The notes: a model not told the origin generated them from the letters alone. Counted from the first letter of the stretch, positions 7,645 through 42,822 are shown. The stretch: DNA of 64,000 nt from Candidatus Kapaibacterium sp. (GCA_963665665.1 OY762428.1:704001-768000); one strand, 5' to 3'. Numbers and translations: made by a program.

Positions 7645-10600
7645 ATGAAAGCGCTGCCAATTCTTATCCTCTCCATCCTGCTTATAACTGCAGCAAATAT
7701 CTATGCCGATAACCACTGGATTGATAAAGGCCAGTATTTAGAAAATGACCAGGATGCGGGGAGTATATCCTTCATCCGCTATTCAGATGATGGAAAATTG
7801 ATTTATACTTTCAGCAATGGTTCAACCCTCCGCTTCTGGGACAGGGAAACAGGAGAAATTCTTTTCGAGAAGGATTTTAAGGAGTATGTTGAAGGAAAAA
7901 TTCTAAATGTAGATATAAGTCAAGATGCAAGATTTTTTGTATTTACTTATACCGAAAAATATGGCCACGAACCATATCTGTTCATCATAAACTTGGAGAC
8001 AAATGTTATTTTTAGTGATATTGCAGTTTTTATTTTATCCGATCCCAGCAGAGAAGAAATTCATCTTCTTGATCATAGTATCCCGTTAATTGATAATAAA
8101 AACAAGAAAGTAGTTGTTTCCAGTATGGTGTATATATATATGGAATGGAATGATATAAGCGCTAATCATTGGTTCGAAATAGATTTAACTAATGGGGATA
8201 CGCTAAGTTATACTAATGAGAACAAAGGCGGAGTTTTTTCTGTTGGATCAAATGAAGATTTTTATTTTTTATTCAGACACGGTGGATATTTTGTTCCTGA
8301 AGGGCATGGAGGTCAGAACTCAAACGATTTTATATCATATATTGAAGGAAATATGGTTGACTCAACAATAATATTATTTCACCAGAAATGTGGAACAGGT
8401 TCAGATTGCAGTTATCTTGATTGGGTTCTCGGCATTGCTCAATCATATGATAATACGATCTTTGCAACGTTTGGAACAAAAAATATTCTTAGAGTCTGGA
8501 AGAGAACCGATCAGGTGTGCGAATTGATCTGTGAAACAAATCTTGATTTTCTATACTATTTTTCATCACATAGTATGGCAATATCAAAATCGAACAAATT
8601 CGCATTATTGCCGTTGAAATCATTTGATCCGGATTATAAAACGGAACTCGCTTTGTGGGATTATGAAAACGGAGTTAAAGCAGATTCAATCATGCTAGAT
8701 TTCGGGAACGAGCTTGTATTTGCATATTATCCGGGAATCAGTAATGAAATAGCCCTTGGATCAAGAGAGAATAAATTAGTTCTTCTTAATAAAGGACTTT
8801 TTTCAGACAGCTTATCAGCAAAATTCAGATATTATGAACCAGTTATTTTCAAAGATTCATTAGTCAAATTTTATAATTATTCAACCGGTAGTCCGGATGA
8901 ATTTTTATGGAATTTCGGAGACGGGCAGACAAGCAGTGAAGAAAATCCGGTTCATACATATCACAGTTCCGGTACTTTTACTCCAACTCTGATTGTCCGA
9001 AAAGGAGCTCAATCAGATACTCTAAGGAAAGAAAAATATATTGTGGTTCATGAACCAATATATGCTGATTTTGAAGCAGATATTCAAACAGGTTCTTCTC
9101 CATTACAGCTAAAATTTACAAACAAGTCACAGGGAAATATCAAATCTTTACGTTGGTATTTTGACGACGGCACATTCAGCGATGAGTTTAATCCTGTTCA
9201 TGAATTTAGTGAGCCAGGAAACTACAGTATTCGTCTTGATGTAGAATTTGATCTGGGAAACAGATTTTCTGAAAGGAAAAAATTTATATCTGTTTATGAT
9301 GAATCCGGATTGTTTGTTAAAGACGAATACAATGCTATTCCAAAAGATTATGCATCAGAAGGCCAAACGCTGGTAGAAACTGATGATGGCGAAATAGCTT
9401 GTATCAGGTGGAACTATTATAATCCTCACAGTTTTATAACTGACGCATTTTATAGTCTGGATTGGTTAGATAATAATTTGAATTTGATATGGCATTATGA
9501 TTTTGATCCAACTACTGCCAATTATCAAAAACGAACCCGAGTTGGTGAAATCTATATAACTCAGAACAAGCAAGTTTGCTTTTATTCTTTTTGGGGTTCA
9601 AAAGATCCGGACAGTGATTCTAAAAGCTTCTCAATGGGAAGATCATGTTTTAATAACAAAGGCCTCGAATATGAGAAGACATATTTTCTTTATACTGATA
9701 CTTTCTTTTATATTTATGAATTCAACCCAAATATATTTTTTACTTACCAGTTTTCTGAATTTACTCATAACTATTTTACCAATATATATGATTCAAATAT
9801 GGTAGCAGTTAATTCAATTAAACCATATTTTATCCAAACAGGAGGAGGTTATAAGAGAGTAATCAGAAAGCTCGACAATAGTTTCATACTTTTATCAAGA
9901 AATACTTATGCCGGATCACTATGTGAAGTTGATATTGTTGATGGAGAACTATGGGGAAACACATACGATACAAGCATTGATATTTGTCCCCTCGACGGAG
10001 CATATATACCTGAACAGGGGTATATATTAACAGGATTTTCCTGGATGAATGATGTTAAGTATTCCTCCTTCAACCTTACTAACGAAAAAGGTATTGTTAT
10101 TGATACGATACTTAATGCTGAAAACTCAGTATTATATTCTATTGTAAGCCTGAATGACAGCCTGTTTGCTGCCGGAGGTAATATTGACGGTAAAATTTGC
10201 CTTACCATAGTTGATAAGCATGGTAATATTGACGGAAATTACAAGTTGAAGAACAAACAGGGTTCGGTTTGTCAATTGATTAAATCAATTGACGGAACAC
10301 TTCTTGCTGTTTGTACAACAAAAGATTATCGGGACAGCAGTTGCGCATCCGTGATGAGAATTGAACTTCCTGAAAGAATTCTAAGTTCCGTGAAGCATCC
10401 GAAAGATGATGTAAATATTGATATCTTCCCTAACCCCGCCTCCTCAATTATAAACATCACAGGCATTGAAATTTCGCGATGCAAAGGCAATACCACCATA
10501 TACAACCGCCTTGGTCAGGATGTGAGCGGGCTTGTTGAGTTTGCAGGCACTTCTTCGATAAATATATCCGCCCTGCCGGACGGGGTATATTATATCAGGG

Positions 10601-10650
10601 TAAATATCGATGAACAAATTATTGTGCGGCAGATGGTAGTTGTGAAGTAG
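7645..10650 (+). CDS. T9SS-secreted protein with WD40-like propeller, two PKD domains and a C-terminal sorting domain
   Basis: Signal peptide; WNFGDGQTSSEENPVHTY and WYFDDGTFSDEFNPVHEF (PKD); IFPNPASS...LPDGVYYIRV (T9SS CTD). Confidence 0.85.
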   Translation: MKALPILILSILLITAANIYADNHWIDKGQYLENDQDAGSISFIRYSDDGKLIYTFSNGSTLRFWDRETGEILFEKDFKEYVEGKILNVDISQDARFFVFTYTEKYGHEPYLFIINLETNVIFSDIAVFILSDPSREEIHLLDHSIPLIDNKNKKVVVSSMVYIYMEWNDISANHWFEIDLTNGDTLSYTNENKGGVFSVGSNEDFYFLFRHGGYFVPEGHGGQNSNDFISYIEGNMVDSTIILFHQKCGTGSDCSYLDWVLGIAQSYDNTIFATFGTKNILRVWKRTDQVCELICETNLDFLYYFSSHSMAISKSNKFALLPLKSFDPDYKTELALWDYENGVKADSIMLDFGNELVFAYYPGISNEIALGSRENKLVLLNKGLFSDSLSAKFRYYEPVIFKDSLVKFYNYSTGSPDEFLWNFGDGQTSSEENPVHTYHSSGTFTPTLIVRKGAQSDTLRKEKYIVVHEPIYADFEADIQTGSSPLQLKFTNKSQGNIKSLRWYFDDGTFSDEFNPVHEFSEPGNYSIRLDVEFDLGNRFSERKKFISVYDESGLFVKDEYNAIPKDYASEGQTLVETDDGEIACIRWNYYNPHSFITDAFYSLDWLDNNLNLIWHYDFDPTTANYQKRTRVGEIYITQNKQVCFYSFWGSKDPDSDSKSFSMGRSCFNNKGLEYEKTYFLYTDTFFYIYEFNPNIFFTYQFSEFTHNYFTNIYDSNMVAVNSIKPYFIQTGGGYKRVIRKLDNSFILLSRNTYAGSLCEVDIVDGELWGNTYDTSIDICPLDGAYIPEQGYILTGFSWMNDVKYSSFNLTNEKGIVIDTILNAENSVLYSIVSLNDSLFAAGGNIDGKICLTIVDKHGNIDGNYKLKNKQGSVCQLIKSIDGTLLAVCTTKDYRDSSCASVMRIELPERILSSVKHPKDDVNIDIFPNPASSIINITGIEISRCKGNTTIYNRLGQDVSGLVEFAGTSSINISALPDGVYYIRVNIDEQIIVRQMVVVK

Positions 10651-10692
10651 GTTTTGATTATCCATTGGGATGACACAAAAGTTAGAAGATCA

Positions 10693-11319
10693 GCCATCCT
10701 GAGCGAAGCGAAGGATGCATTCTTAATACATTATCTGCGAACAAAGATGGATTCTTCCGTCGCAAGCACCGGATAATTCCCCTCCCTTGGAGGGGACTAA
10801 AGGGGTGGTTTTATTTCTTTCTGATGCTAAATCTCTATCCATGAGCTAAAGCACGTGGCTATTGAATTTGACGATTATAAGGCTGGAAGGTCATTCTGAG
10901 CGCCAGCGAAGAATCCATTCTTATTACACTATCTGCGAACAAAGATAGATTCTTCGGTCGCTTCGCTCCGTCAGAATGACGGATGGGAATGTCCCCCGCT
11001 GGCGGGGGTGTCCGAAGGACGGGGGTGGACTTCCGGAAAATTCCCCTCGTTGAGGGGTGGCGAGCGCAGCGAGTTCCCGACACGTCGGGACAGGCTGGGG
11101 TGGATTCTTTTTCTTTGCCTCCGCACCTTGCACATTTATCCACGAGCTAAAGCACGTGGCTATTGAACTTGACGATGGTAAAACTGCATGTCATCCTGAG
11201 CGAAGCGAAAGATCCATTCTTCATACATCATCTGCGAAGGAAGATGGATTCTTCGGTCGCAAGCTCCGGAAGCCTGCCCCTGCCTGCACCGATTTATCGG
11301 TGACGTGTCGGGGAATGAC
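10693..11319. repeat. BIME-like mosaic of REP-like palindromes, about 300-bp period
   Basis: Unit A, GTCAT(C/T)CTGAGCG..GCGAA.GA.CC..., at 10693, 10890 and 11190. Unit B, CCCCTC..GAGGGG..GGGGTGG, at about 10776, 10991 and 11040. Unit C, TATCCAYGAGCTAAAGCACGTGGCTATTGAA, at 10836 and 11137. Confidence 0.85.
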
Positions 11320-11459
11320 AACATAATACCTCCTTCTCCGGCCCTATCCCCCAGTTCTTCCACCCAAATGAACAGGCCGCCGGCCTTAATTCCCCAACCT
11401 GTGGTTTCAATGAATCGAATAATTTCCTTAATTCAAGGCTGTTTCGAACCAGAATCCTG

Positions 11460-12222
11460 ATGTTTGGGCTAATTGCTTTGTTAGCAGGGCTTTATACTGC
11501 CTTGGCTGGAGTTATTGAACTACTGTTTGGCCTTAATGTAGTGAAATTTGGCCTCATTGAGGACTTGTTTAGCCTTATTGAGGACTTGGTTGACTTTACT
11601 GAGGACTTGGTTGACCTTACTGAGGACTTGGTTGGCTTTACTGAACACTTGGTTGGCTTTACTGAACACTTGGTTGGCTTTACTGAACGCTTGGTTGATC
11701 TTACTGAACACTTGTTTGACCTTACTGAACGCTTGGTTGATCTTACTGAACGCTTGGTTGATCTTACTGAACATGTTCTTTGCCTCCGACCAAGAGTTCA
11801 ATGCCTTCAACCAAGGCATCAATGACTCCGACCAAGGCAGCAATAACTCCGAACAAGGCAGCAATAACTTCGAACAAGGCATCAATAACTTCGAACAAGG
11901 CAGCAATGACTCCGAACAAGGCAGCAATATCTTCAACCAAGGCAGCAATAACTCCAACCAAGGCAGCAATAACTCCGACCAAGGCATCAATGACTCCGAC
12001 CAAGGCAGCAATAACTCCGACCAAGGCAGCAATAAAGCAAAACATTGCTGCAATAGTGTCGACCAAGAGTTCATTATCTTCAAACAAGGCGGCAATAGCT
12101 TCAAACAAGAGTTCATTATTATCAAACATCGGTGCATTGCTTCTGACCCCTCCCAAACCCTCCCCGAAGGGGAGGGCTTTGAAGTAAAACAAGGCAGAAA
12201 TGGATTCAAACATTGGTGCAAT
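11460..12222. repeat. Two head-to-head tandem arrays of a degenerate 21-bp unit
   Basis: Left arm about 15 units (e.g. TTGGTTGACCTTACTGAGGAC). Right arm about 17 or more units of the related reverse complement (e.g. CCAAGGCAGCAATAACTCCGA). Centre GAACATGTTC at 11769-11778. Confidence 0.9.
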
Positions 12223-12500
12223 GCCGCTGCACCTGCCTACCTCCCCCCGGCCCCCTCCTTCGAAAGGAGGGGGAGTTAATTCTATGATATTTAACTTCTT
12301 ATCCCCTCCTAAAGTAGGAGGGGAATACAGGGGTGGTTTTCTTGCTTTGCTTACGAACAGGGCATTATTATCCACGAGCTAAAGCACGTGGCTATTGAAT
12401 TTTGATGATGGACGGGGGTGGAGTTCCGGAAAATTCCCCTCCAGTGGAGGGGTGGCGAGCGAAGCGAGACGTGGTGGATTCTTCATGCATTATCTGCGAG
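12146..12500. repeat. Second cluster of REP-like palindromes
   Basis: CCCTCCCCGAAGGGGAGGG, CCCCCTCCTTCGAAAGGAGGGGGAG and CCCCTCCTAAAGTAGGAGGGG hairpins; third copy of unit C at 12369-12399; unit B variant at about 12410-12480 matching 11018-11105. Confidence 0.85.
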
Positions 12501-12514
12501 AGAGGCTGGAATTT

Positions 12515-13096
12515 TTACATTTCATCATCTTTCAGGCTTTCATAAAGGAGGTCTATATGATATGAAAATCCGGGAATAAGTTTGAATCGCCAGGCATCGT
12601 CCATGTATATAATACCATTGCAGAGTTCCGCCACTGCCGAAGCTATAAGCCCGTAGCTGATTCCCCAGAGATTGACACTGCCTTCGTACCTGGAAAAACG
12701 CCATAGTTTATTTACTTCTCTGGCTTTTTCCAGATGCATATCAATATCTTTTATTACCTGGTTATTTAGCTTTATTTCATCAATGAACCACCATGGGTCG
12801 CTGTCCTCCCAGCTTTTATCATAAAGCGTTTCGTTCTCGATTTTTATCTTTATTCCATTATTAATATAATTTACTTTGCAGTATTCATTTGCTTCCCAAC
12901 AGAAAGGCTGCCCTGTTTCAGGAACGATAATGCCTTTATTTTTGTCAGGGGAATGAATTTCAACGGAAAGCTCCACAGGCTGGTTAAAACTGAAAAGATG
13001 AAGCAGGCTGTTAATTTTCTTTTGGCTCAATTCCAGAACATCGCCAAATGTGAGAATATTGTTTTCTGTAGCGACAACTTCAAATATTTTACTCAT
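12515..13096 (-). CDS. Hypothetical protein
   Basis: 193-aa ORF with ordinary composition downstream of the vor terminator; no family recognised. Confidence 0.7.
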   Translation of the reverse strand: MSKIFEVVATENNILTFGDVLELSQKKINSLLHLFSFNQPVELSVEIHSPDKNKGIIVPETGQPFCWEANEYCKVNYINNGIKIKIENETLYDKSWEDSDPWWFIDEIKLNNQVIKDIDMHLEKAREVNKLWRFSRYEGSVNLWGISYGLIASAVAELCNGIIYMDDAWRFKLIPGFSYHIDLLYESLKDDEM

Positions 13097-13170: not shown

Positions 13171-13707
13171 TTATTTGATAAGGCTCTGGCCAACGGCAAA
13201 AGCTTCAAGGTTCAGCGGGATAAGTTTGTGGTGGCGTTCCGGAAGCACTTTGTACAGAGCTTCTTCAACTGTTTTAGGAGAAACTGTTCCCCTTGCTTTG
13301 ATGAAAGCGCCCAGGATAATCATATTGAGAACTTTCATGTTTTTCAGCTTAAGAGCTTCTTCACTACCTGGAATGGCATATATATTAATATCTTCCCTTG
13401 TGGGGGGATTAATAATATTCGTGCTGTCGAAAATAATGTTGCCGCCGGGTTTAACTTTTTCTTCGAATTTATCAACCGAAGGCTGGTTAAGCGCAACAAC
13501 TGTATCGAAAGTAGTAATAACCGGTGAACTAACCATTGTATCGGAAATAATCGTGATACAGTTGGCAGTACCGCCCCTCATTTCCGGCCCGTATGACGGG
13601 AACCAGCAAACTTCCTTATTTTCCATCATTCCGGAATAAGCAAGCATCATACCCATTGAAAGGACACCCTGTCCTCCGAATCCTGCGAAAATTGCTTCTT
13701 CTGTCAT
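13171..13707 (-). CDS. 2-oxoacid:ferredoxin oxidoreductase gamma subunit
   Basis: AGFGGQGV and SYGPEMRGGTAN motifs. Confidence 0.92.
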   Translation of the reverse strand: MTEEAIFAGFGGQGVLSMGMMLAYSGMMENKEVCWFPSYGPEMRGGTANCITIISDTMVSSPVITTFDTVVALNQPSVDKFEEKVKPGGNIIFDSTNIINPPTREDINIYAIPGSEEALKLKNMKVLNMIILGAFIKARGTVSPKTVEEALYKVLPERHHKLIPLNLEAFAVGQSLIK

Positions 13708-13709
13708 AA

Positions 13710-14513
13710 TTATTTGCCCTCCGGAACTTTTAAATCACCAAGCGGATAGAAAGGAATCATTTTTTCTTCAATGAATTTCATTGTCTGAAGCGGAGTCATT
13801 TTCCATGCCGACGGGCAATTGGAAACAACTTCTACAAGACAAAAGCCAAGTTCTTTTTGCTGATACTGGATAGCTTTTTTCAAAGCTTTCTTTGTCAGCC
13901 TTGCGTTCTTTGTTGTATGAACGGACTGGCGTGTAACATAAGCAGCACCCGGGAGCTGAGCAAGCAGTTCAGTAATTTTCAGCGGGTGGCCCTGGTCTGC
14001 AACGTCGCGTCCGAAAGGTGAAGTTGTAGAAACCATACCCGGCAGAGTTGTAGGAGCCATCTGGCCGCCTGTCATACCGTAAATACCGTTGTTTATAAAT
14101 ATTGCAAGGAAATTTTCACCCCTGTTAGCAGCATGAATAGTTTCATTACCACCAATAGCAGCAAGGTCACCGTCACCCTGGTATGTATAAACGATTTTTT
14201 CCGGCATTACCCTTTTAATGCCTGTTGCCACTGCGCAGGCACGGCCGTGAGCTGCCTGCTGCATATCAACATTCATGTAGTGGTATGCAAAAACGGAACA
14301 TCCAACCGGAGCAACACCAATTGTGTCGTTCTGAAGCCCCATTTCGTCAAGAACTTCCATGAAAAGCTTGTGTACTACTCCATGGCCGCAACCCGGGCAG
14401 TAGTGCAAAGGAGTATCAGTAAGAGTTTCCGGCCTTCTGTAAACCAGGTTTTCTTCCTGAATAATATCTTCCTTTGTAAGTTTCTCAGCATTTATATTAG
14501 CATTGTCGCTCAT
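13710..14513 (-). CDS. 2-oxoacid:ferredoxin oxidoreductase beta (TPP-binding) subunit
   Basis: YCPGCGHG, GDGD...NNGIYGMTGGQ TPP motif, CP. Confidence 0.92.
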   Translation of the reverse strand: MSDNANINAEKLTKEDIIQEENLVYRRPETLTDTPLHYCPGCGHGVVHKLFMEVLDEMGLQNDTIGVAPVGCSVFAYHYMNVDMQQAAHGRACAVATGIKRVMPEKIVYTYQGDGDLAAIGGNETIHAANRGENFLAIFINNGIYGMTGGQMAPTTLPGMVSTTSPFGRDVADQGHPLKITELLAQLPGAAYVTRQSVHTTKNARLTKKALKKAIQYQQKELGFCLVEVVSNCPSAWKMTPLQTMKFIEEKMIPFYPLGDLKVPEGK

Positions 14514-15583
14514 TACTCGCCTCCGTTGATAAATGTTTTTTCAAAATAATCAAGGATTTCGTCCGGTGTCGGGATCATTCCGCCAGTTCTGCCATAATGT
14601 TCAATCCTGGTTTTACCCTCAACGGCGAGCCTGACATCTTCGATCATCTGACCGAAGTTCATTTCCATATCAAGAATACCTTTTACTTTCGGAGCCAGGT
14701 CTGCATATATCTGGTAAGGGAAGGGATAAACAGTGATTGGCCTTACAAGGCCGATTTTGTAGCCTTTTTCCCTGCCAAGTTCCATAGCTTTCGAGCAAAT
14801 TCTTGCTCCAAGGCCATAACCTGTGAATATATAGTCGGCATCATCGGTGTTAAATGTTTCATAACGTACTTCGTTAGCTTCAATTTCCCTGTACTTTTTC
14901 TGGAGCCTGAGGTTTACCTGTTCCATTACTTCCGGTTCGATGAACAGAGATGTAATATAAACTCTGTCTTTATCTTCTACTTTACCGGTTGTTGCCCAAT
15001 CAAGAGGTTCGGTAACTCTTTCCATCTGATCGAAAAGTTCAACTTTTTCCATCATCTGGCCGATAGCACCGTCTGCTAATATCATAACAGGGTTTCTGTA
15101 TTTCATGCTGATTTCAAAACCAAGCTTAACGTGGTCAACCATTTCCTGTACACTTGACGGAGCAAAGGAAATAAGTTTATAATCGCCGTGGCCGCCGCCT
15201 TTTGTAGTCTGGAAATAATCACCCTGTGAAGGCTGAATAGTACCAAGACCGGGGCCGCCCCTGTTAACGTTTGCCAATACGCAGGGCAACTCGGCGCCTG
15301 CTATGTATGACAGCCCTTCCTGCATAAGGCTTATGCCGGGGCTTGAGGATGTTGTCATTACACGTTTACCACAGCCTGCAGCACCATAGATCATATTAAT
15401 AGCCGCAACTTCTGATTCAGCCTGGAGTACAACCATGCCGGTTCTGGCTTTTGCTTCCCTGGCAAGATATTCCAAAACTTCTGACTGCGGAGTGATAGGG
15501 TATCCGAAGTAAGCGTCACAACCCGCGCGAATCATCGCTTCGGCCAGCGCTTCATTGCCTTTCATCAACCTAATTTCGCCCAT
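14513..15583 (-). CDS. vorB: 3-methyl-2-oxobutanoate / 2-oxoacid:ferredoxin oxidoreductase alpha subunit
   Basis: GNEALAE, YFGYPITPQSE, QAESEVAA, TSSSPG, RGGPGLG. Confidence 0.88.
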   Translation of the reverse strand: MGEIRLMKGNEALAEAMIRAGCDAYFGYPITPQSEVLEYLAREAKARTGMVVLQAESEVAAINMIYGAAGCGKRVMTTSSSPGISLMQEGLSYIAGAELPCVLANVNRGGPGLGTIQPSQGDYFQTTKGGGHGDYKLISFAPSSVQEMVDHVKLGFEISMKYRNPVMILADGAIGQMMEKVELFDQMERVTEPLDWATTGKVEDKDRVYITSLFIEPEVMEQVNLRLQKKYREIEANEVRYETFNTDDADYIFTGYGLGARICSKAMELGREKGYKIGLVRPITVYPFPYQIYADLAPKVKGILDMEMNFGQMIEDVRLAVEGKTRIEHYGRTGGMIPTPDEILDYFEKTFINGGE

Positions 15584-18937: not shown

Positions 18938-20143
18938 ATGGGAACATCTATAAATTTTTATCTGAATAATGACAGAAAAAGCAAAAACAAAGAGCTGGCT
19001 ATTTATTGCTTTATTAGAGACAGCGGTAAAACAATTTCCCTTCATGCAAATGAGAGAATTGAAAAAAAATTCTGGGACAGCAAAGGGCAGAAAGCTAAGA
19101 GATCATATATTGGACATCCCGAGCTAAATGATTATTTGTATCGATTCCGCGAAAAAGTAAAACAAGTAATAAGAAATGCTAAAATTGAAAATCCTCTTAT
19201 GCCTTTTGATCAATTGAAAGCATATATAATTAAAGAATTCAAGAAAAAAACTGACTACAATTTCTTTCAGATTCTTGATGTTTTCATTGATACCCGAAAA
19301 AGTACAGTTAGTAAGGCAACAATAACCAGATTCCATACTTTTACCAAACATCTTGAAGATTTCAGCAAGACTGAGCAATTGGATATTGCCCTTGATACAA
19401 TTGATCTAACATTTTTTGATAAACTCCAAAGCTTTTTTATTTCGAAAAATTTGAGCAATAATTATATCTATAAACAAATGCAATTCCTCATATCTTTTCT
19501 TAAATGGGCCTACGAAAGAGAATTTACTAAAAATAACAAATTCGAAAAATATCAGAATGTAAAGAAGACACCATCTGATCAAATTGCACTGACAAAAGCT
19601 GACCTGAAGAAAATTATGGATGCAAAAAATCTTGGTGATAAACTTGAGAAAGTAAGAGATATGTTCCTGTTTCAGCTTTATACCGGCCAGCGTTATGCGG
19701 AAATTGCAAAATTCGACATCAGAGACGTTCATAATGGAGTTTGGAATCTGTATCAGGACAAAACCAAGAAGAAAGTTGAAATACCGTTGATCTCCCCTGC
19801 CCTGCAAATTGTGGCAAAGCATGGCAATAAACTGCCGATTATAACAAACCAGAAGCTGAACAAATATCTCAAGGAACTGGGCGAAAAAGCAGGGCTGGAT
19901 GAAATAATAACTGTTGCAAAATTCTCCGGTGGCGAGAAAATCGAACAGAAGCTGCCGAAATACAAACTGCTGTGCACACATACAGCGCGGCGTACTTTTG
20001 TTTCTCTGGCAGGTTATTCGAATATCAATCCCGATGTTGTAAAATCATTCACCGGCCACAATACGGATAAGATGGTCAGCGTATATTTCAAAAAGAATAC
20101 AGAGGACAGCCGGAAAGCCATTGAAGGAATATTTTCGAATTGA
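18938..20143 (+). CDS. Tyrosine recombinase/integrase (Bacteroidota arm-binding type)
   Basis: N-terminal arm-binding-like region; TGQRYAE (R), KT (K), HTARRTF (HxxR), TGH and Y; adjacent to att. Confidence 0.93.
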   Translation: MGTSINFYLNNDRKSKNKELAIYCFIRDSGKTISLHANERIEKKFWDSKGQKAKRSYIGHPELNDYLYRFREKVKQVIRNAKIENPLMPFDQLKAYIIKEFKKKTDYNFFQILDVFIDTRKSTVSKATITRFHTFTKHLEDFSKTEQLDIALDTIDLTFFDKLQSFFISKNLSNNYIYKQMQFLISFLKWAYEREFTKNNKFEKYQNVKKTPSDQIALTKADLKKIMDAKNLGDKLEKVRDMFLFQLYTGQRYAEIAKFDIRDVHNGVWNLYQDKTKKKVEIPLISPALQIVAKHGNKLPIITNQKLNKYLKELGEKAGLDEIITVAKFSGGEKIEQKLPKYKLLCTHTARRTFVSLAGYSNINPDVVKSFTGHNTDKMVSVYFKKNTEDSRKAIEGIFSN

Positions 20144-22168: not shown

Positions 22169-24472
22169 ATGAGGTTCATATGCAGTACTAACAGAGGAAT
22201 TATCGATAAATCGTTCAACCGCAATGCAGATATTAGCATGTGGAAGAATGTTGAGCTATCCACCGAAGAACTGAAGCACAACCTGGCTGATGGTTTTGCA
22301 TTCTGCCCGGTTGTATGGAAAGATCCGGCGGCAGGCAGAAGCGAAGATAATTATTCAACGAACCAGATTCTGGCAATTGATATTGACAATGATATTTCTA
22401 TTAACGGGCAAAAGCGAAAAAAACTGGATGAAGAAGGATACTTCAGTTTTGATGATGCCTGTAATGACAGGATGATCAGGCAGAACTCGGTGATGATATA
22501 CACAACTTCCTCCCATACTGATGATCACAACAGGTTCAGGATCATTTTTTCGTTTAACAAGTCTCAATCAAGCAAGGTTTTTTACCAGGATACTTTAAGA
22601 ATGCTCATTCGTAAGTATGACGCTGACCCAAATTGTTCTGATATTGTTAGATTGTTCTATGGTTCCTCTAACGGAAAGTTTCGAATATTTAATAATATAA
22701 TGAGCAAAGATTTTCTTGAAATGCTTAAACATTCCGACCGCTTTGAGAAAAGAAATTCTGCTGAATACACAAAAAAATCAGGCAGATTAATTGATCCGGC
22801 ACAGATTGAGGATATACTTAATACAATACCACCCAATCCGGGATATGATGTATGGTTGAAGATACTATCCGGAATAGGGAATCATCTTGAGGATGATGAG
22901 ATCACTACCGAACTAATTGATAACTGGTCTCCGGATAAGAATCAGGGAACAAACTATAAAGTAAAGCATCGCTTAAGGAAGATCGGAATAGGGACAGTGA
23001 TATATTACGCCCGTATGTATGGCTATGATATATCCACACTGCCCGGCCTGGAGGAACTGACCGAAAAATACCATGAACTTACAGAGATGGGCAATGCCCT
23101 TAGAATATACGACGAATGGCGCGATATTCTGGCATACAATCATACCCGCGACAAGTGGATGATATGGAACGGAAGATATTGGAGCATTGACGAGACATGC
23201 GAACATGAGCAGCTTGCGAAAAGAACAATCCGAAACATCATAAAGATAGAAGCAAAAAAAGAAAAGAACGAAGAAAAGAAGAAAAAAATTCTGAACTGGG
23301 GAAAAAACTCTCAAAAGCGGTCGATATTTACGGCTTCATTGAAATTTGCAAGGACAGAAACTGACTTCGTAACAGTTGAAAAGCACTACAATAGGAATAA
23401 TAACCTGTTCAACCTTGCAAATGGCACTTATGACCTGAAGAACCAACGATTCAAAGACCATAATCGAAAAGACTATATCACCAAATTTGTGGATGTGGAA
23501 TACAAGCCCGAAGAGGATGACGGAATATCCTGGGCCCTCTTCCTGGATACAATTTTCGACGGAAATATTGAGCTTATTGATTTTGTTCAGCGAGCTGTTG
23601 GTTACAGCATGTCCGGCAATATCAGCCATGAGGTTCTTTTCTTCTGTCATGGTAAGGGTAATAACGGAAAATCAATATTCTTTAATGTCCTGGATCACAT
23701 GTTTGGCACTTATGGTGTGAAGATGGATGCATCTACACTGATGCAGAAAAAACAAGATTCAGCTTCAAATGACCTGGCAAGGCTTGTTGGCAGAAGATTT
23801 GCAGTCAGCTCTGAGATTGAAGAGAATAAACGGCTCAATGAATCTCGCGTAAAGAATTTAACCGGCCACGACAAAATCTCAGCCCGCTTTCTCTACCAGG
23901 AGCATTTCGAATTCGTGCCGGTGTTAAAACTTTGGATGTATGGCAACCATAAGCCGGTTATCAGAGGGACAGATGACGGAATTTGGCGCAGGATAATGCT
24001 TATTCCATTCAATGTCAGCATACCAAAGGAAGAACAAAGGCCGGCAGATGAACTTCTTGAAGAATTGTTATCGGAAGAAAGCCAGATTCTGAACTGGATG
24101 CTTGACGGCTATAAGAAATATAAGGCAGTTGGCCTTAATCCTCCCCGGATTGTAAAGATGGCAACAGACGAATACAAGAATGACAGCGATCAGTTGATGG
24201 AATTTATTGAACAAATTTGTAATACTGACGACACAACGAAGTGTATAAAAGTAGCAACTTTATTTAAAGTTTATCAATTCTGGTGCAAAAATAATAGTGA
24301 GTTTTGTATCGGAAAAAAAACATTCGTTAGTCGTATTGAGGAAAAAGGCTTCCCTAAGAAAAAAGGAGCACACAATTATCCGGAATTCAAGGGAATTTCT
24401 ATTCGCCAGGAAGTGATTGACCAGATGAACCAGCAATCCGACAAGAATAATGATGACAAACTGAAATTCTAA
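22169..24472 (+). CDS. Phage/plasmid primase-helicase (AEP-like primase, PriCT-2, D5/P4-family SF3 helicase)
   Basis: AIDIDND, YTTSSH...RFRIIF, GYDVWLKI, TEMGNALR, Walker A GKGNNGKS, NHKP...DDGIWRRI. Confidence 0.9.
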   Translation: MRFICSTNRGIIDKSFNRNADISMWKNVELSTEELKHNLADGFAFCPVVWKDPAAGRSEDNYSTNQILAIDIDNDISINGQKRKKLDEEGYFSFDDACNDRMIRQNSVMIYTTSSHTDDHNRFRIIFSFNKSQSSKVFYQDTLRMLIRKYDADPNCSDIVRLFYGSSNGKFRIFNNIMSKDFLEMLKHSDRFEKRNSAEYTKKSGRLIDPAQIEDILNTIPPNPGYDVWLKILSGIGNHLEDDEITTELIDNWSPDKNQGTNYKVKHRLRKIGIGTVIYYARMYGYDISTLPGLEELTEKYHELTEMGNALRIYDEWRDILAYNHTRDKWMIWNGRYWSIDETCEHEQLAKRTIRNIIKIEAKKEKNEEKKKKILNWGKNSQKRSIFTASLKFARTETDFVTVEKHYNRNNNLFNLANGTYDLKNQRFKDHNRKDYITKFVDVEYKPEEDDGISWALFLDTIFDGNIELIDFVQRAVGYSMSGNISHEVLFFCHGKGNNGKSIFFNVLDHMFGTYGVKMDASTLMQKKQDSASNDLARLVGRRFAVSSEIEENKRLNESRVKNLTGHDKISARFLYQEHFEFVPVLKLWMYGNHKPVIRGTDDGIWRRIMLIPFNVSIPKEEQRPADELLEELLSEESQILNWMLDGYKKYKAVGLNPPRIVKMATDEYKNDSDQLMEFIEQICNTDDTTKCIKVATLFKVYQFWCKNNSEFCIGKKTFVSRIEEKGFPKKKGAHNYPEFKGISIRQEVIDQMNQQSDKNNDDKLKF

Positions 24473-25362: not shown

Positions 25363-26889
25363 TCATTCCCCTTCATTCCCGTTTATGGTTTCCATTATCT
25401 CTTTGAAGCTTGCCAGCCCCGATTCAATGTTTTCTATTATTTCGGCTGCCAGAATATCCGGATCGGGAAGGTTATCCAGGTCGGTCAGGCTTTTGTCCTT
25501 CAGCCAGAAAATATCCAAATTGGTTTTATCTCTTGCAAGTATTTCTTCATAGCTGAATTTGCGCCATCTGCCTTCAGGGTTCTCCTCGCTCCATGTGTCT
25601 TTTCTTTTGTGGCGGTTTTCCGGATTGTAACATTTTACAAAATCTTCCAGATCCGCGGTTGTCATCTGCTTTTTCTTCAGTGTGTGGTGCACGTTGGTGC
25701 GGTAATCGTAAAACCATATTTCTTTAGTATGAGCTTCTTTACTCGCGGCTCTATTATCGAAGAAAAGAACATTCGCTTTCACGCCATGTGCATAGAACAA
25801 GCCGGTTGGCAAGCGTAAAATAGTATGCAGATCAGCAGTCATCATTAATTGTTTGCGTACTTCTTCGCCTGCGCCGCCTTCGAACAATACATTATCAGGA
25901 AGCACTACTGCCGCCTGGCCGGTTACTTTCAGCATGGTTTTGATATGCTGTAAAAAGTTCAATTGCTTGTTGGATGTGGTTTCCCAGAAATCCTGTCTGT
26001 TGTATGTCAGATCTTCTTTTTCTGCTTCGCCTTCAGCGTTGGTAACAGTGTAGCTGCTTTTCTTGCCGAAAGGGGGATTTGCAAGCACGTAATCGTATCG
26101 GCTGCCGTCGTCGGCTACTAAGGCATCGTTTGAAGATACAAAACTATCTCCGCCCATTTCGCCTATGTTATGCAGGTACATATTCATCAGGCACAAGCGC
26201 CGGGTATTGGCTACAATTTCGTTGCCATAGAATGTACTGTTTTTCAGAAACTCTTTTTCATCACGGTCGAGCTGGTTGTTTGTAGTTATCCAGTCGTATG
26301 AAGCCAAGAAGAAACCGCCAGTGCCGCAGGCAGGATCGGCTATTGTCTTCATTGGTTTTGGCCGGACACATGCAACCATCGTCTTGATCAGGGCACGTGG
26401 AGTAAAGTATTGTCCGGCGCCGGATTTTGTATCCTCAGCATTCTTTTCCAACAGGCCTTCGTAAATTTTGCCCTTTATATCGGCTCCCATCAATGACCAT
26501 TCTTCCTGGTCAATCATATTGATTACACGCAAAAGCTTGGCCGGATCCTGAATTTTATTCTGGCTTTTGGTAAATATTTGACCCAGCATACCTTTTTCGG
26601 TACTCAGGCTGCGTAAAAGCTGTACATAAAACGATTCCAGTTCTGCGCCGCGTTTCGCCGCCAATGTTTCCCAATCGCATAGCTCGCTGTTTTCTATTTC
26701 ATTTCCTTCAACATCTTTCAACCTGGGGAATTTTAAGCCTTTGCTATATGGTGGTTTATTTAATTCATCCGCCATTTTAAGGAAAAGTAGATATGTGATT
26801 TGTTCTAAATAATCACCGTATCCAACCCCATCATCACGCAGTACATTCGCGAGGTTCCATATTTTTGATATTATTGCTGTATCTGACAT
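25363..26889 (-). CDS. hsdM: Type I R-M methyltransferase subunit (m6A)
   Basis: LRDDG...YLLFLKM, GQYFTPR, DPACGTGGF, NPPF. Confidence 0.95.
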   Translation of the reverse strand: MSDTAIISKIWNLANVLRDDGVGYGDYLEQITYLLFLKMADELNKPPYSKGLKFPRLKDVEGNEIENSELCDWETLAAKRGAELESFYVQLLRSLSTEKGMLGQIFTKSQNKIQDPAKLLRVINMIDQEEWSLMGADIKGKIYEGLLEKNAEDTKSGAGQYFTPRALIKTMVACVRPKPMKTIADPACGTGGFFLASYDWITTNNQLDRDEKEFLKNSTFYGNEIVANTRRLCLMNMYLHNIGEMGGDSFVSSNDALVADDGSRYDYVLANPPFGKKSSYTVTNAEGEAEKEDLTYNRQDFWETTSNKQLNFLQHIKTMLKVTGQAAVVLPDNVLFEGGAGEEVRKQLMMTADLHTILRLPTGLFYAHGVKANVLFFDNRAASKEAHTKEIWFYDYRTNVHHTLKKKQMTTADLEDFVKCYNPENRHKRKDTWSEENPEGRWRKFSYEEILARDKTNLDIFWLKDKSLTDLDNLPDPDILAAEIIENIESGLASFKEIMETINGNEGE

Positions 26890-26939: not shown

Positions 26940-27647
26940 TCAAAGAAATGATACTTCCCGATACATGATAATCAAATCTCTTGATCTGATTGTTGCTTTA
27001 TATGTATCCTCTCCTAAGTAAGCAGCATTGATGCGTCGCATAAAGGTGTAAAAATCTTTTTTATTATCGCAGCCTTTTTCAAAATTATATTCCTCGGTTT
27101 TAAAAATCAGGATAAGCAGAACATTGATATTTGCATCTGAGATAGTGCCAACAGTTGAGTAAAGAAATTGATAACGCAAATTAAAATCTTCTTCCGTTAC
27201 CCGGTTCAAATTTTCTTTTAGCAGATTTTCGATTCTTTCAGGAGCATTTGTACTCTTGCCATTTAATTCATTAACTTTTGCTTTATGATAAACAGTGGCC
27301 ACAGTGTCTCCGAATGGTTCGTCAACTTTTGCCTCAAGCCCGATAAAAATTGATTGATTTGATTCTGTTTTGCCCCATATACCTAAATCATGTTCTCTGC
27401 CGTGACCGAATTCATCAAAACGAACTTCATATTCGATTTCGGCTTTATCTAATACAACCTTTGTTTGAAGGGCATCAGATAACATTGTCTCTAATCGAGA
27501 TATTCCATTTCTATTTAGAATAAAATCAGCAAGGGAGTACGAGCTTCGATATTTCTTCCAGTGTTTTCTTTTTTTACCACTTGTAAAAGCAGCATTTTTC
27601 CAATCATCAATGTTTTTTATTTCAAGGTTTCTGTATTCAATTTTCAT
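26940..27647 (-). CDS. DUF6946-like putative PD-(D/E)xK nuclease
   Basis: HWKKYRSSYSLA, EHDL...IGLEAKVDEPFG, LRYQFL; start overlaps the hsdS stop (ATGA). Confidence 0.6.
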   Translation of the reverse strand: MKIEYRNLEIKNIDDWKNAAFTSGKKRKHWKKYRSSYSLADFILNRNGISRLETMLSDALQTKVVLDKAEIEYEVRFDEFGHGREHDLGIWGKTESNQSIFIGLEAKVDEPFGDTVATVYHKAKVNELNGKSTNAPERIENLLKENLNRVTEEDFNLRYQFLYSTVGTISDANINVLLILIFKTEEYNFEKGCDNKKDFYTFMRRINAAYLGEDTYKATIRSRDLIIMYREVSFL

Positions 27648-28903
27648 TTCTTTTTCTCCTTTTTAATCCTTTCCAGCAGCACGCTTGCTGGTTCATAATC
27701 TGCTTCTTGTTTGCATTTTTCTATTTCTTCTTCACTTAATAGTTTTCCTTCAAATGCTTTTTTTAGAATGCTTTGGCGCAGGGCTTCTGATTTTTCTAAT
27801 GCTTCTGCTATGCTTTGTTCTACCTTGTCGCATACGGACAGGCGTGATTCGATTTCTTTGACTATTTGGTGCTGTAAATTTACAGGTGGTAACTTTAACT
27901 CCAAGTTGAGAAAGCGATTTTGCGTTAAATTCACACCACTATCATTACCGCCAGTTTTAATCTCTTCAATTTTAGTAAGAAATTCAGATGAATTCATATT
28001 ATACATAAAATAATCATTTAGTATATTATCAGATAAACGAAGACGATATACTTTATCACAATTGATAAGTTTTGGTCTTGTTTTCTTAATAAGGCAACAT
28101 ACGCCAACCCTGTTTCTTGGACCAGCTCGAGTAATTAAAATATCGCCATACTTAATTTCATGTTGTTTTCTTGGTTCTAAATTCTCAGGTAAAACTTTGT
28201 TTTCATTTTCATTAAAAAATCCATGTTGAATCGAAGAGGTTTTAATAACTGCCCATTCCTCATCATTTGTTGAACTCATATTCTTACATTTAGGACTCCA
28301 ACCCTGTGATAATTCATCAACAACACTTTTCAGTTCTACAATCTCCCATTCCCCCTCAAAAGCCTTTTTAAGCACTGCCTGACGGTATATCTTCAGTTGT
28401 TCCTGTGCTTTTTTTAGGTCTGCAATACCTTTATCGAGCGAGGCTAAGAGGTTCTCGATTTTTGTAACTATTGCCCGCTGGATGGGGAGGGGAGGGAGAG
28501 GGAAATACTGTTTTTCAATATGTTGATAATGTCTTGCATAACCTTTATCTTTTATTTTAAAAACAAGAATTTCAGTTAATAATGCAATATACTTGGGAAT
28601 TAATCCATTTTTAGGTTCTAATACTTTTGTTCCATCAGCACCTGGAGCAAAATGAAAATCAATGAGTTTGATTCTTTTGGTATGATCACCAAATATAATT
28701 ACCGGCAAACGACAATTTAAAATCCTATTTTCATCTTCTGTATATCCTCCTATGGTAGATTGACCTTGATCTACAACAGGAATTCTCCCGGATTGTAAAT
28801 AATCTTTTTGTTTCAGCTTGGTTTTTGTTGTAGATACTTTATAAACAGCATCCTTGTATAGTATCTCTACCCAATCTTCAGATATTATATTTTTATTTGT
28901 CAT
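27644..28903 (-). CDS. hsdS: Type I R-M specificity subunit
   Basis: Two TRDs with conserved PLPPLPIQRAIV and LPPVNLQHQIV, QSILKKAFEG, EPASVLLERI; likely start MTNK at 28903. Confidence 0.93.
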   Translation of the reverse strand: MTNKNIISEDWVEILYKDAVYKVSTTKTKLKQKDYLQSGRIPVVDQGQSTIGGYTEDENRILNCRLPVIIFGDHTKRIKLIDFHFAPGADGTKVLEPKNGLIPKYIALLTEILVFKIKDKGYARHYQHIEKQYFPLPPLPIQRAIVTKIENLLASLDKGIADLKKAQEQLKIYRQAVLKKAFEGEWEIVELKSVVDELSQGWSPKCKNMSSTNDEEWAVIKTSSIQHGFFNENENKVLPENLEPRKQHEIKYGDILITRAGPRNRVGVCCLIKKTRPKLINCDKVYRLRLSDNILNDYFMYNMNSSEFLTKIEEIKTGGNDSGVNLTQNRFLNLELKLPPVNLQHQIVKEIESRLSVCDKVEQSIAEALEKSEALRQSILKKAFEGKLLSEEEIEKCKQEADYEPASVLLERIKKEKKK

Positions 28904-29813
28904 TATCGTTATCTTTCTTTTCAGAAAATAGATCATAATTTTGAGGATGGGGTCTTAATATTGTTAAATATTCAGGAAATTTTTCAAATACTTTTTGAAC
29001 GAACCTTGTAGTATTTATATATTTATTCTCTGTGCCTTTTGGTACGCTATAATTCTTAATAAGAGAATAATATACACCCAGGGCATTTAACATCGGATCG
29101 ATATTATCTTCCGGCAATGTACCCTGTGTGGCTAATGACACAGGCCAATTAATAATCCACCCGGGGATCTGGTTGTTTTTCAACGGTATGATCGAAGACA
29201 AAAATAATTTTTGAAAAACCTTTTTGTTAAATATTTGAGAATCAATCAAATCAGTTTGTAATTTTGAATTAACATCATTCAAATAATTAGTAAACTTCGG
29301 GGTTGAAATTGCGCCCATAAGGTCTGGTTGTTCATACCATGCGGAACAATCATTTATTGCTTCTCCGAAAAAGAAATTTTTCTCATATTCATAATAATTC
29401 CCGTAAGACAAAGCCCCTCTGAATAGCATATGGTTCACAAATGAGATAGAAATATAATACTGAACTATTGTCCCAAAATAATTTAAATATTTTACCAAAT
29501 TATCTTCCTGTCCCACATCTAATGTAATAATAACTGTGTCCTGAAAAATAAAGAAATCAGGTTGAATTATTTCAACATCTTTGCCCAAGGTATCAATTTG
29601 GGCTAACATTTGGTGAAAGTCTTTATTCGAAATCATCTCTTTAACAAAAATATGGGATATCAGAAACTGCTTAATTTCATCAAAATTTGCATTTTTTGTA
29701 CCAAGAGCATCTAATATGGCAACAAAACCGTATCTACTCTTTATTTTTTCTTCTTTTACTAAATCAATAACAGTTTCTGTATGGCTATTCTTATCAATTA
29801 ATATTTTTTCCAT
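28893..29813 (-). CDS. Class III nucleotidyl cyclase-like protein (uncharacterised)
   Basis: FVAILDALG and FQDTVII (two metal-binding Asp positions), FRGALSYG, GEAIND..WYE, NWP, KYINT; stop overlaps the hsdS start. Confidence 0.6.
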   Translation of the reverse strand: MEKILIDKNSHTETVIDLVKEEKIKSRYGFVAILDALGTKNANFDEIKQFLISHIFVKEMISNKDFHQMLAQIDTLGKDVEIIQPDFFIFQDTVIITLDVGQEDNLVKYLNYFGTIVQYYISISFVNHMLFRGALSYGNYYEYEKNFFFGEAINDCSAWYEQPDLMGAISTPKFTNYLNDVNSKLQTDLIDSQIFNKKVFQKLFLSSIIPLKNNQIPGWIINWPVSLATQGTLPEDNIDPMLNALGVYYSLIKNYSVPKGTENKYINTTRFVQKVFEKFPEYLTILRPHPQNYDLFSEKKDNDNDK

Positions 29814-30152: not shown

Positions 30153-31238
30153 TTACCACAATTCCACTTTCTTTATATACTCCGTTCCCTCATTGAACTC
30201 AATCAATTTCCTGTGCTGCAAACGCCCGACAATAACAGCAGGATGTGTATTGAATTTCTTCGCGAATTCAAGAATATCTTCATCTGTCAATTCATCCCTG
30301 CTTACAATTTCCATTTCTTCTTCTTCCTTCAGTAGCCAGTCGGCGGCAAATTTATCGGCTTCCCGCTCTTTCTTTTCATCTTTGTCTTTATGGTTCTCAC
30401 TTTCAAGGAATATATCCTTTTTCCCATGCAGAAGGATATGTCCCGCTTCGTGGAAAAATGTAAACCAGAAAATATCATTTCTCCTGTACCTGCCGGACAG
30501 TTGTATAAGCGGCGTGTCGTTTATCCATCTTGTACAACCGCTAATTGGGGCTTTGGGAAGGCAAGGTGTGAAAACTGTTTTAACACCGGCATCTAAACAA
30601 TAGTTCTGCAATTTTGTAAAGAAGTCATCGGGATGCCGAGCCATCAATGATTTAAATTTTTTCAAAGCGGTTTTGAATTTACTTTGATTGTATTCAGGAG
30701 CTTCTATTTCTTTCGACAACAGATCGCCCTGACGCAGCCAGGCAGAAACTGAATGTGCTTCTTTTGTATGTTTCAGTGATATACGAAACGCTAATTTCAG
30801 TTTTTCTTCATAATAATAGTTCTCCCATGCTTTATGGGAAGAAAAGCTGAAAAACTTCAACAAATATTCTGCTTTCTCTTCAATTTTTCGCGTTGCAGGC
30901 AAGCCAAATAATTTAGCCATATCAGGATACGGAAAACTTTTTGCCCATTCCACTGCCTCGGTAATAGCTTGCTTGAAATTTTGTTTTGCAACCGCTTCAT
31001 TATATTTCTGCTGGTAATTCAACCAAAAATGAGCAGGGATATTCAACACATTTTCAAATTTTACTGCCATATCAGGCGTAATAGCACTTTGGCAATTAAG
31101 GATTGCAGTGATAGTCTTTTCAGGTTTTCCGGTTCTGACAGCAAATTCTTTCGGCCCCATCTCTAGTTCCGCCAGTTTTTCCCTCAGTGTTAATCCGGGA
31201 TGAGTAAATGATTCGGGACTATATTCGCTCTTCATCAT
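30153..31238 (-). CDS. higA: HigA antitoxin fused to an ImmA/IrrE (M78) metallopeptidase domain
   Basis: HPGLTLRE...ITPDMA...FWLNYQ HTH; FWFTFFHEAGH...EREADKFA. Confidence 0.85.
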   Translation of the reverse strand: MMKSEYSPESFTHPGLTLREKLAELEMGPKEFAVRTGKPEKTITAILNCQSAITPDMAVKFENVLNIPAHFWLNYQQKYNEAVAKQNFKQAITEAVEWAKSFPYPDMAKLFGLPATRKIEEKAEYLLKFFSFSSHKAWENYYYEEKLKLAFRISLKHTKEAHSVSAWLRQGDLLSKEIEAPEYNQSKFKTALKKFKSLMARHPDDFFTKLQNYCLDAGVKTVFTPCLPKAPISGCTRWINDTPLIQLSGRYRRNDIFWFTFFHEAGHILLHGKKDIFLESENHKDKDEKKEREADKFAADWLLKEEEEMEIVSRDELTDEDILEFAKKFNTHPAVIVGRLQHRKLIEFNEGTEYIKKVELW

Positions 31239-42642: not shown

Positions 42643-42656
42643 AGTGTTTTGTTTTG

Positions 42657-42729
42657 TGATCCCGGCAGGACTCGAACCTGCGGCCCTTTGATTAAAAGTC
42701 AAATGCTCTACCACCTGAGCTACGAGATC
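42657..42729 (-). tRNA. tRNA-Lys(TTT), integration target
   Basis: GATCTCG acceptor stem pairs with CGGGATC; anticodon loop CTTTTAA; GGTTCGAGTCC T arm; CCA not encoded. Confidence 0.96.
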
Positions 42730-42822
42730 ATCAAAAGAACGAGCACAAATATACGACTATTTATAATACTATGCAAGTCTTTTTTTGTTTTTGTGCATTT
42801 TCTTTAAGTTTTTCAATGTGCG

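Follow-up and report, generated by a model that had tools for sequence, protein, structure and literature searches.

Minisatellites that are embedded in modular intergenic repeats of bacteria have been described before. The BOX element of Streptococcus pneumoniae is an intergenic repeat with the structure boxA-(boxB)n-boxC, in which a variable number of tandem boxB copies lies between conserved ends (PMC3049150). The BrickBuilt MITE of Porphyromonas gingivalis, also intergenic, carries a spacer-free minisatellite of 23-nt units, present in 1–23 copies between conserved flanks (PMC4596501). For inverted duplications, the ODIRA model proposes template switching at short inverted repeats (PMC4689423), and template switching at quasipalindromes has been described in E. 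coli (PMC7202029).

No report of mirrored arrays or of prokaryotic higher-order repeats was found among open-access papers and bioRxiv. In the REP and BIME elements of enterobacteria, GC-rich imperfect palindromes and other short motifs are assembled into intergenic mosaics of variable composition, which are frequently located at 3′ ends, and the REPs are mobilised by RAYT (IS200/IS605-like) transposases. In eukaryotic satellites with higher-order repeats, diverged monomers of the same length are in phase, and a block of several monomers is tandemly repeated at high identity. Plasmid iterons and partition-site arrays consist of direct repeats of 17–22 bp at two-turn spacing, sometimes in inverted sets. 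An event of inverted duplication comparable to template switching is the tandem inversion duplication of Salmonella.

The element described here was identified in a 64-kb window, i.e. the whole stretch of DNA that was analysed. With a probability of about 60%, we interpret it as a non-coding minisatellite within a mosaic repeat resembling BOX and BrickBuilt, which became mirror-symmetric by a fold-back error of replication. The original prediction had stated that no standard feature type explains the element. This statement could not be upheld, as minisatellites in modular intergenic repeats are described for BOX (PMC3049150) and BrickBuilt (PMC4596501).

The element is built from spacer-free, head-to-tail units of 21 bp. 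Tandem Repeats Finder identified a left array at 11573–11773 (9.6 copies, 90% matches, 0% indels) and a right array that starts at 11781 or 11810 and ends at 12035 (12.0 copies at 87% or 10.8 copies at 90% matches, 0% indels), beyond which a degenerate period of 42/21 bp extends to 12136. A CRISPR array was rejected as a candidate: the units abut with 0% indels, and there are no unique spacers. Cut in register from 11460, the left arm (11460–11774, plus strand) comprises 15 units with the core type TTGGTTGATCTTACTGAACAC and an ATGTTT module at its start. Its outer five to six units are degenerate, and those at 11460–11564 resemble the types of the right arm. The core motif A[TAC]TG-N5-[TA]TG[GT]T occurs 10 times on the plus strand and, reading the right arm on the minus strand from 12222 to the centre, 18 times on the minus strand; each set is in a single phase (10 of 10 motifs in the left arm). 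A search of the window for a four-core pattern, in which CTTGKT recurs every 21 bp, yielded 16 matches versus 0.00 expected, all of them within the element. The units vary at 10–13% of positions inside an arm, and the consensus units of the two arms differ at 9 of 21 positions.

The right arm is not uniform. It is composed of about 12–13 homogeneous units, followed by diverged units, a hairpin block, further units, and a second block, and all of these segments and GC-rich hairpin blocks hold one 21-bp phase. Its core of 13 units (11774–12054, minus strand, unit ATTGCTGCCTTGGTCGGAGTT) runs from an ATGTTT module at 12045–12054 to the centre, and the innermost units are of the GAAC type, like those of the left arm. 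Four diverged units are located at 12055–12138; they are in phase on the minus strand, read NELLVDT, IAALFED, NELLFEA, and NAPMFDN, and belong to other types of the family described below. Hairpin block 3 (12139–12180, minus strand) has a length of exactly 42 bp, i.e. two units, reads KALPFGE GLGGVRS, and is conserved in the relatives. Two more in-phase units on the minus strand (12181–12222; ISALFYF and IAPMFES) precede hairpin blocks 1 and 2 (12223–12348, minus strand), which span exactly 126 bp or six units, represent the most conserved part of the family, and contain perfect CCCCTCC..GGAGGGG stems at 12252–12272 and 12303–12323.

The two arms join at the perfect palindrome GAACATGTTC (11769–11778), which contains CATG and hence an ATG on either strand, and they are in exact mirror register around an axis at 11773.5. 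The TTGGT cores are situated 19.5 nt to either side of the axis. Out of 294 positions, 166 are complementary at the true axis, 159 with a shift of −21, 167 with one of +21, and 37–127 in all remaining registers. Independent arrays would share their phase one time in 21. Over the complete arms, 176 of 315 nt are complementary (about 56%); the two innermost units are complementary at 13 and 15 of 21 positions (28 of 42), and the count is also 28 when the innermost 44 nt are considered. The consensus units agree at 12 of 21 positions, which is weak when considered alone, as 5% of shuffles equal this value. Within the left arm, the stretch 11497–11517 is complementary to right-arm units at 19 of 21 positions. 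In addition, a module ATGTTT.G...ATTGCT opens both arms, at 11460 on the plus strand and at 12045 on the minus strand, the left arm being longer by two units. Because of the 19/21 match and the shared module, we regard the common origin of the two arms as secure.

The original prediction had derived both arms from one 21-bp unit in exact mirror register, with 15 units to the left, starting at 11460, and at least 17 to the right, with cores equidistant from a perfect palindrome and with 28 of the innermost 44 nt matching. These claims are borne out. The common origin of the arms thus stands, but the uniformity of the right arm does not, because it contains the 42-bp hairpin block at 12139–12180 and its outer units are of other types. 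The Gram-positive SOS box has the sequence GAAC-N4-GTTC. The central palindrome was also considered as an operator, a candidate that was dropped because its spacing and sequence are unlike this box or parS.

The element is located within a repeat-filled gap of 1.86 kb that separates convergent genes. The upstream neighbour (7645–10650, plus strand), whose 3′ end faces the element, encodes a protein that has a PKD domain and, at its C-terminus, a sorting domain for type IX secretion. The downstream neighbour, an ORF of 193 aa without a Pfam match (12515–13096, minus strand), converges on the element and is followed by genes for 2-oxoacid:ferredoxin oxidoreductase (13171–15583). The gap is a mosaic of the repeat families D4–D10, which are confined to 10.7–12.5 kb and absent from the rest of the window. 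The left part of the cluster (10651–11459) contains copies of D4 (10695–10773, 10893–10971, and 11192–11270) and D5 (10797–10869 and 11098–11170) as well as D7/D9/D10 hairpin modules, and the 189 bp directly to the left of the left arm (11271–11459) are unique in the window. On the other side, the region 12349–12402 consists of a unit-like stretch (NNALFVS on the minus strand) followed by the repeat CCACGAGCTAAAGCACGTGGCTATTGAA on the plus strand, a third D5 copy. The right end of the cluster (12403–12514) has a D9/D10 hairpin module (12407–12468) and a D6 copy (12475–12515). Perfect CCCCTCC-N3-12-GGAGGGG hairpins were found four times versus 0.00 expected, all at 10.7–12.5 kb, in a genome with 37% GC.

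The window contains 33 ORFs, none of them for a RAYT transposase, and the genes adjoining the element include no rep, par, initiator, partition, or regulator gene. As a point against our reading, neither a transposase nor a terminal inverted repeat was found for the element. A promoter scan retrieved 5 sites versus 4.3 expected and was uninformative. Across the window, GC skew tracks gene direction and is therefore uninformative with respect to origin or terminus.

The relatives of the element were identified as predicted proteins, and the comparison concerns change at the protein level. The minus-strand ORF at 11764–12375 has seven matches with E values of 9e-80 to 6e-29 (P0001–P0007), to which a 471-aa cluster member (P0009) can be added. 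All eight relatives are unnamed and devoid of Pfam domains. At least five are encoded on one contig of 5,458,198 bp, and the modules were recovered in independent assemblies, where they are spread over at least four contigs. The GC hairpin blocks and heptad units of the right arm recur in the relatives in mosaic arrangements. The first brick of the family reads KARKPPL YSPPTLG GDKKLNI IELTPPP SEGGGRG EVGRxxx; others are xAPMFEx IAALFFF, KALPFGE GLGGVRx, IAAMFCF, and runs of IAALVGV or IDALVEV. Between P0003 and the window ORF, which are collinear and 72% identical, the gaps measure exactly 14 and 7 aa, and all gaps in the alignment of seven sequences are multiples of 7 aa. The unit motifs share one phase modulo 7 in all nine sequences (15/15, 15/15, 6/6, 2/2, 3/3, 6/6, 7/7, 6/6, and 17/17). 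P0009 consists of about 5.5 tandem copies of a composite of 14 units, two of them array units, and thus represents a higher-order repeat. Copy number varies by whole units between related loci, as judged at the protein level. The conserved hairpin blocks outside the right arm are present in the window and the eight relatives, in contrast to the flank of the left arm (11271–11459), which is unique in the window.

A representative search with the 233-aa minus-strand ORF yielded 419 matches, and 12 sequences from the best 150 of the 419 were examined. Based on these 12 sequences and on lengths and identities, we take most of the matches to be coiled-coil or repeat noise. The one related-looking sequence among the 12 (P0021) contains the left-arm unit on the opposite strand (FSKANQV/FSKANHV, nine times, 67% identity) between unrelated flanks. 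This left-type array has no mirror partner on that side, which argues against our reading. No homologue of the left inward ORF (11460–11825) was found in 5.8 billion clusters at 66–212 aa, none of the 243-aa plus-strand ORF in the protein search, no match to the element in 72,556 plasmid and 50,697 phage records, and no usable match in the ESM Atlas. The C-terminus of P0003 is VIDYNQ followed by a stop, as GTTATTGAT-TATA-ATCAATAAC would encode, the codons being guessed. From this ending we infer an array that would run into its own reverse complement through TATA, and it provides the one hint that the mirror form recurs within the family.

A scan of genome contigs with a loose 21-bp four-core pattern retrieved at least 119 loci, most of which are unrelated to the element; the window's own genome was not among the matches listed. 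Some inverted self-match was present in 31 of them, and 11 of the highest-scoring loci were inspected by eye. A locus in a Propionibacteriales MAG (L025) has two reverse-complement arrays of 21-bp units (16/21) that meet at GTTCCGGAAC and are complementary at 100 of 140 positions; this mirror pair is unrelated to the window element. In two loci (L001, L102), a spacer of about 45 nt separates inverted arrays with a unit length of 7 nt, and five (L022, L040, L071, L099, L117) have units that are themselves partly palindromic. No inverted pair of arrays was seen by eye in the remaining three (L002, L057, L058). Tandem arrays have thus formed mirror pairs in unrelated bacteria, and at least two such cases without relation to each other were present among the small number of loci examined. 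This recurrence speaks for a general route of mutation rather than for a special function.

Such a route could have operated as follows. Arrays would grow and shrink in 21-bp quanta by slipped-strand mispairing or unequal recombination. The mirror pair may then have arisen by a template switch or a fold-back of the nascent strand at the GAACA/TGTTC of the unit itself. The arms are symmetric about a short palindrome without a spacer, and a strand switch at a palindrome inside the unit produces a spacer-less, symmetric, in-register junction by construction. Thereafter, each arm would have been homogenised separately, with the ATTGCTGCC type retained on the right and the ACTGAAC type on the left; the family contains both types. 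Separate homogenisation, which has to be assumed for arms that are 56% complementary today, would lead to arms that are 87–90% uniform inside and yet only 56% complementary to each other, and the divergence to about 56% may have let the palindrome survive. In read-through transcripts from either convergent gene, the element would form an imperfect hairpin of about 600 nt with GC stem-loops on its sides, and this structure could stop or insulate read-through. Any effect of the element is thus probably exerted at the level of nucleic acids, and we do not propose a protein product.

The strict 21-bp phase across the hairpin blocks is a feature that fold-back plus slippage leaves unexplained. The hairpin blocks of exactly 126 and 42 bp hold three segments of the array in one phase, which for arbitrary insertions would be a coincidence of 1 in 441. 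A locus from Chitinophagaceae (L079), the only possibly related one among the matches listed, shows the same behaviour: two types of 21-bp units alternate, and the phase is kept across the blocks of the other type (12 of 12 and 6 of 6 motifs). Its unit matches at 15 of 21 positions, a likeness that is not secure because six positions were forced by the pattern and at least 119 loci were screened. The phase pattern fits a higher-order satellite with monomers that diverged in place, and it also fits switching between arrays at shared microhomology. Alternatively, the phase itself could be selected. In such a selected, phase-locked satellite, which we regard as rather unlikely, the two-turn monomers, among them hairpin monomers kept at exact multiples of 21 bp, would constitute a higher-order repeat, and the mirror arrays would be a cis-acting scaffold or bidirectional insulator, or else a nursery of new heptad microproteins. 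If the phase-locking were under selection, it would indicate an unrecognised device at the DNA or RNA level in this group of bacteria.

A second alternative is that the element is protein-coding, with two convergent small genes, or at least the one on the minus strand, encoding helical proteins of heptad repeats. The product would be a hydrophobic/acidic coiled coil with a Pro/Gly-rich N-terminal part and a length that varies by whole heptads. As the original prediction had noted, five ORFs overlap the element (121–243 aa), and at the centre both strands contain the reading EHV. Four of the six frames are open in each arm, compared with about 0.71 of frames calculated for a stop-free 21-nt unit; because repetition of such a unit keeps frames open, the overlapping ORFs need no special explanation. 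Support for genes comes from the relatives, all eight of which are called in the same frame and on the same strand as the window ORF, are collinear with it at up to 72% identity, and keep a strict 7-aa phase with no in-frame indels other than multiples of 7 aa. However, a gene caller would repeat one frame choice on near-identical DNA. In the left arm, the ORF begins with an ATG exactly at the start of the array at 11460, again a point against a non-coding reading, but it is the ORF without a homologue in 5.8 billion clusters at 66–212 aa, and the gene call over this unit in P0021 is on the opposite strand.

Codon usage was evaluated with a log-odds score trained on 28 long ORFs of the window, and 12 frames were tested. 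The left inward frame scored 0.54, a value reached by 0.8% of off-frame samples of seven codons, which favours coding. In contrast, the right inward frame, which has the eight relatives in one frame, scored −0.03 and resembles off-frame sequence, and the best frames of that arm are the outward ones (0.35 and 0.29). Codon usage is thus inconsistent between the homologous arms, and a score of 0.54 is found where there are no relatives. Of the variable columns, 3 of 8 in the left arm and 2 of about 7 in the right arm are synonymous, which is near the estimated 1/4 for random changes and too few to decide; the non-synonymous differences between units are mostly radical (A/D, G/E, V/D).

No curated family in Pfam matched except ApoB100_C, which reached 29.4 bits with the left ORF (cut-off 27). 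This match covers only 30 residues of heptads, belongs to a vertebrate family, and was rejected as a repeat artefact. Alanine_zipper scored 22.8 on the outward frame, below its cut-off of 23.1. AlphaFold, applied to the alignment of seven sequences, returned a mean pLDDT of 55.9 and a pTM of 0.27. The model is of low confidence and contains no folded domain; values below 50 were obtained for the part from the hairpin blocks, and the remainder forms a single long helix (residues 87–198, pLDDT 52–87), the latter being in line with a heptad protein. The best-conserved "residues" of the minus-strand ORF are, in contrast, translations of perfect GC palindromes in a genome with 37% GC and belong to the N-terminal part that is modelled as disordered, which suggests selection or mobility at the level of nucleic acids. 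The convergent heptad peptides of the original prediction are accordingly not supported: the left ORF lacks a homologue, codon usage disagrees, and the conserved part of the right ORF consists of GC palindromes. We consider it improbable that either ORF is a real gene, and many public "proteins" with 7-residue repeats are probably translations of such arrays, which calls for caution in annotation.

A third alternative assigns a selected function to the RNA. The long hairpin in read-through transcripts would act as a bidirectional terminator or insulator, as a target of a double-strand RNase, or as a source of small RNAs. The predicted minimum free energy of the RNA is −245 kcal/mol versus −199 kcal/mol for shuffles (z = −6.5), and the DNA fold has a z of −3.6, so that the ability to fold back, which had been predicted, is supported. 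The element is also located between two 3′ ends and is flanked by GC stem-loops, one of which (12251–12273) is terminator-like with a T-rich tail. However, z-scores of this size are obtained with any inverted repeat, and complementarity between the arms amounts to only about 56%. Terminator-like sites number 8 versus 3.0 ± 1.7 expected, but most are outside the arms, and no Rfam family reaches its gathering score at the element. A dedicated RNA device thus appears doubtful.

Somewhat less probable still is a cis-acting DNA element, in which the phase-locked units would be bound by a coating or wrapping protein, as in iterons or centromere-like sites, with the arms facing a central site. This is the phased protein-binding array of the original prediction. 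It is compatible with the unit length of 21 bp (two helical turns), with the core A.TG....CTTGKT.G common to both arms, with the phase that is kept across the hairpin blocks and likewise in the Chitinophagaceae locus, and with a marginal 10.5-bp WW signal in the right arm (p = 0.046). The left arm has no such signal (p = 0.94), no rep, par, or DNA-binding gene adjoins, and neither the 72,556 plasmids nor the 50,697 phage records contain a match. In addition, the units vary by 10–13% within an arm, the consensus units of the arms differ at 9 of 21 positions, and in P0009 the array is reduced to two units per composite. The empty form of a cassette, which had also been considered, is not supported: there is no sign of a cargo site, and the arms touch without a spacer. 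An artefact of assembly or amplification, i.e. a fold-back chimera or a mis-joined repeat, is very improbable: tandem repeats longer than a read assemble poorly, so that copy numbers may be wrong, and the L025 mirror pair is located at a contig end, but a chimera would have perfectly complementary arms, in contrast to the observed 166 of 294 positions and the different unit types of the two arms, and at least four contigs from independent assemblies contain these modules.

The non-coding minisatellite thus remains our preferred reading, and the architecture of the element is curious, but it is probably neither a gene nor a new kind of machine. If this reading is true, minisatellite modules can be turned into mirror pairs, and a whole mosaic family, including its GC hairpins, can evolve strictly in steps of 21 bp, in the manner of a higher-order satellite.

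Compared with known systems, the element differs from iterons and partition sites in that it lacks an AT-rich unwinding region, an adjacent gene for an initiator or partition protein, and any match among the plasmids searched; its copy number is far higher, and its units are more variable. With REP and BIME elements it shares the GC-rich palindromes in an intergenic mosaic cluster, but BIMEs do not contain a 21-bp minisatellite module, and no RAYT gene is present in the window. The tandemly repeated composite of P0009, with its monomers in phase, resembles the higher-order satellites of eukaryotes, whereas the element is bacterial, has a length of a few hundred bases, and includes GC hairpins as monomers. 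As in template-switch duplications, the arms are spacer-less and symmetric about a short palindrome; such duplications have identical arms and usually a third direct copy, while the arms of the element are about 56% complementary and no third copy was seen.

Like BOX (PMC3049150), the element is modular and intergenic, one tandem module varies by whole copies, and ORFs are present on both strands that are probably untranslated, with folding predicted upon transcription. In contrast, boxB has a length of 45 nt, there is no sequence relation, and the element consists of two facing arrays. Furthermore, BOX has terminal inverted repeats, target duplications, and more than 100 dispersed sites (PMC3049150), while for the element no termini were identified and there is one cluster in the window. 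Membership in the BOX family cannot be claimed.

BrickBuilt (PMC4596501) also has spacer-free units of about 20 nt in an intergenic repeat and is found in the phylum Bacteroidota; it is often located beside substrates of type IX secretion, as the element adjoins a gene for a type IX secretion protein, and annotation pipelines have predicted unexpressed hypothetical genes over it. Its units, however, have 23 rather than 21 nt, and its arrays are single and not mirrored (PMC4596501). The IS5-type terminal repeat of BrickBuilt, GAGACCTTTGCA, has no match within 10.6–12.6 kb at up to two mismatches and two matches in the window, far from the element, versus 4.9 expected. BrickBuilt membership was thus rejected on the basis of unit length and terminal repeat. 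We classify the element as a minisatellite-bearing mosaic intergenic repeat, here in a mirror-paired form with 21-bp quantisation.

Outside the mirror-paired element, the intergenic gap (window positions 10651-11459 and 12223-12515) has a mosaic structure in which GC hairpins are combined with short repeats of at least five other families, none of which has a copy elsewhere in the 64-kb window. The D9/D10 hairpin module of the gap is similar to hairpin block 1 of the right-arm repeat family known from public protein predictions, and the alignment of one family member, P0009, reaches position 12483. The 193-aa ORF adjoining the element (12515-13096) is without a Pfam match.

Farther downstream, the region from 18900 to 42900 is probably an integrated island adjoining the genes for tRNA-Val and tRNA-Lys (42656-42897). 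It encodes a tyrosine integrase (18938-20143), a D5_N/DUF5906 primase-helicase (22169-24472), a type I restriction-modification system, i.e. HsdM (25363-26889), HsdS (27644-28936), and HsdR (31651-34464), an IrrE-like peptidase (30153-31238), a NERD/UvrD-like helicase (36869-39049), an AAA_15/DUF3696 ATPase (40098-41825), and a DUF6946 protein. The GC content drops to 0.27 at 20-22 kb and at 38-42 kb of the window. The sequence at 30066-30131 matches the DUF3800-VIII RNA motif (Rfam RF03075) with 54.9 bits, versus a gathering score of 40.2; the match lies directly downstream of the gene for the IrrE-like peptidase, with a 306-aa ORF (28893-29813) on its other side. Beyond the island, the gene for a hybrid histidine kinase (51276-54020) contains a 63-bp tandem repeat of 3.3 copies with 83% matches (53007-53212).

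Unnamed “proteins” that consist of 7-residue tandem repeats are numerous in public protein sets; examples among the predicted proteins retrieved with the 233-aa minus-strand ORF of the element are P0018, P0038, P0050, P0062, P0072, P0088, P0099, P0105, P0121, and P0141. They probably represent translated 21-bp minisatellites of many unrelated kinds.

Further 21-bp arrays were found on genome contigs. In a Propionibacteriales MAG (locus L025, JBBRYB010000061.1, positions 1-300), two arrays are mirror-symmetric about the 10-bp palindrome GTTCCGGAAC. This mirror pair, which is truncated by the contig end and adjoins the 3′ end of a gene, is a second case that is unrelated to the window element. 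The intergenic array of a Chitinophagaceae MAG (L079, OY970196.1, 2700-3140) is a mosaic of two 21-bp unit types in alternating blocks, with the phase kept. Because one of its units is identical to the left-arm unit of the window element at 15 of 21 positions, it may be related. Another array, in a Tannerella MAG (L022, JAISNP010000132.1, 3030-3220), comprises about 10 units of 21 bp, each containing the core TCACGTGAAACA. This core is similar to the consensus of chromosomal parS, and the array may thus be a set of partition sites.
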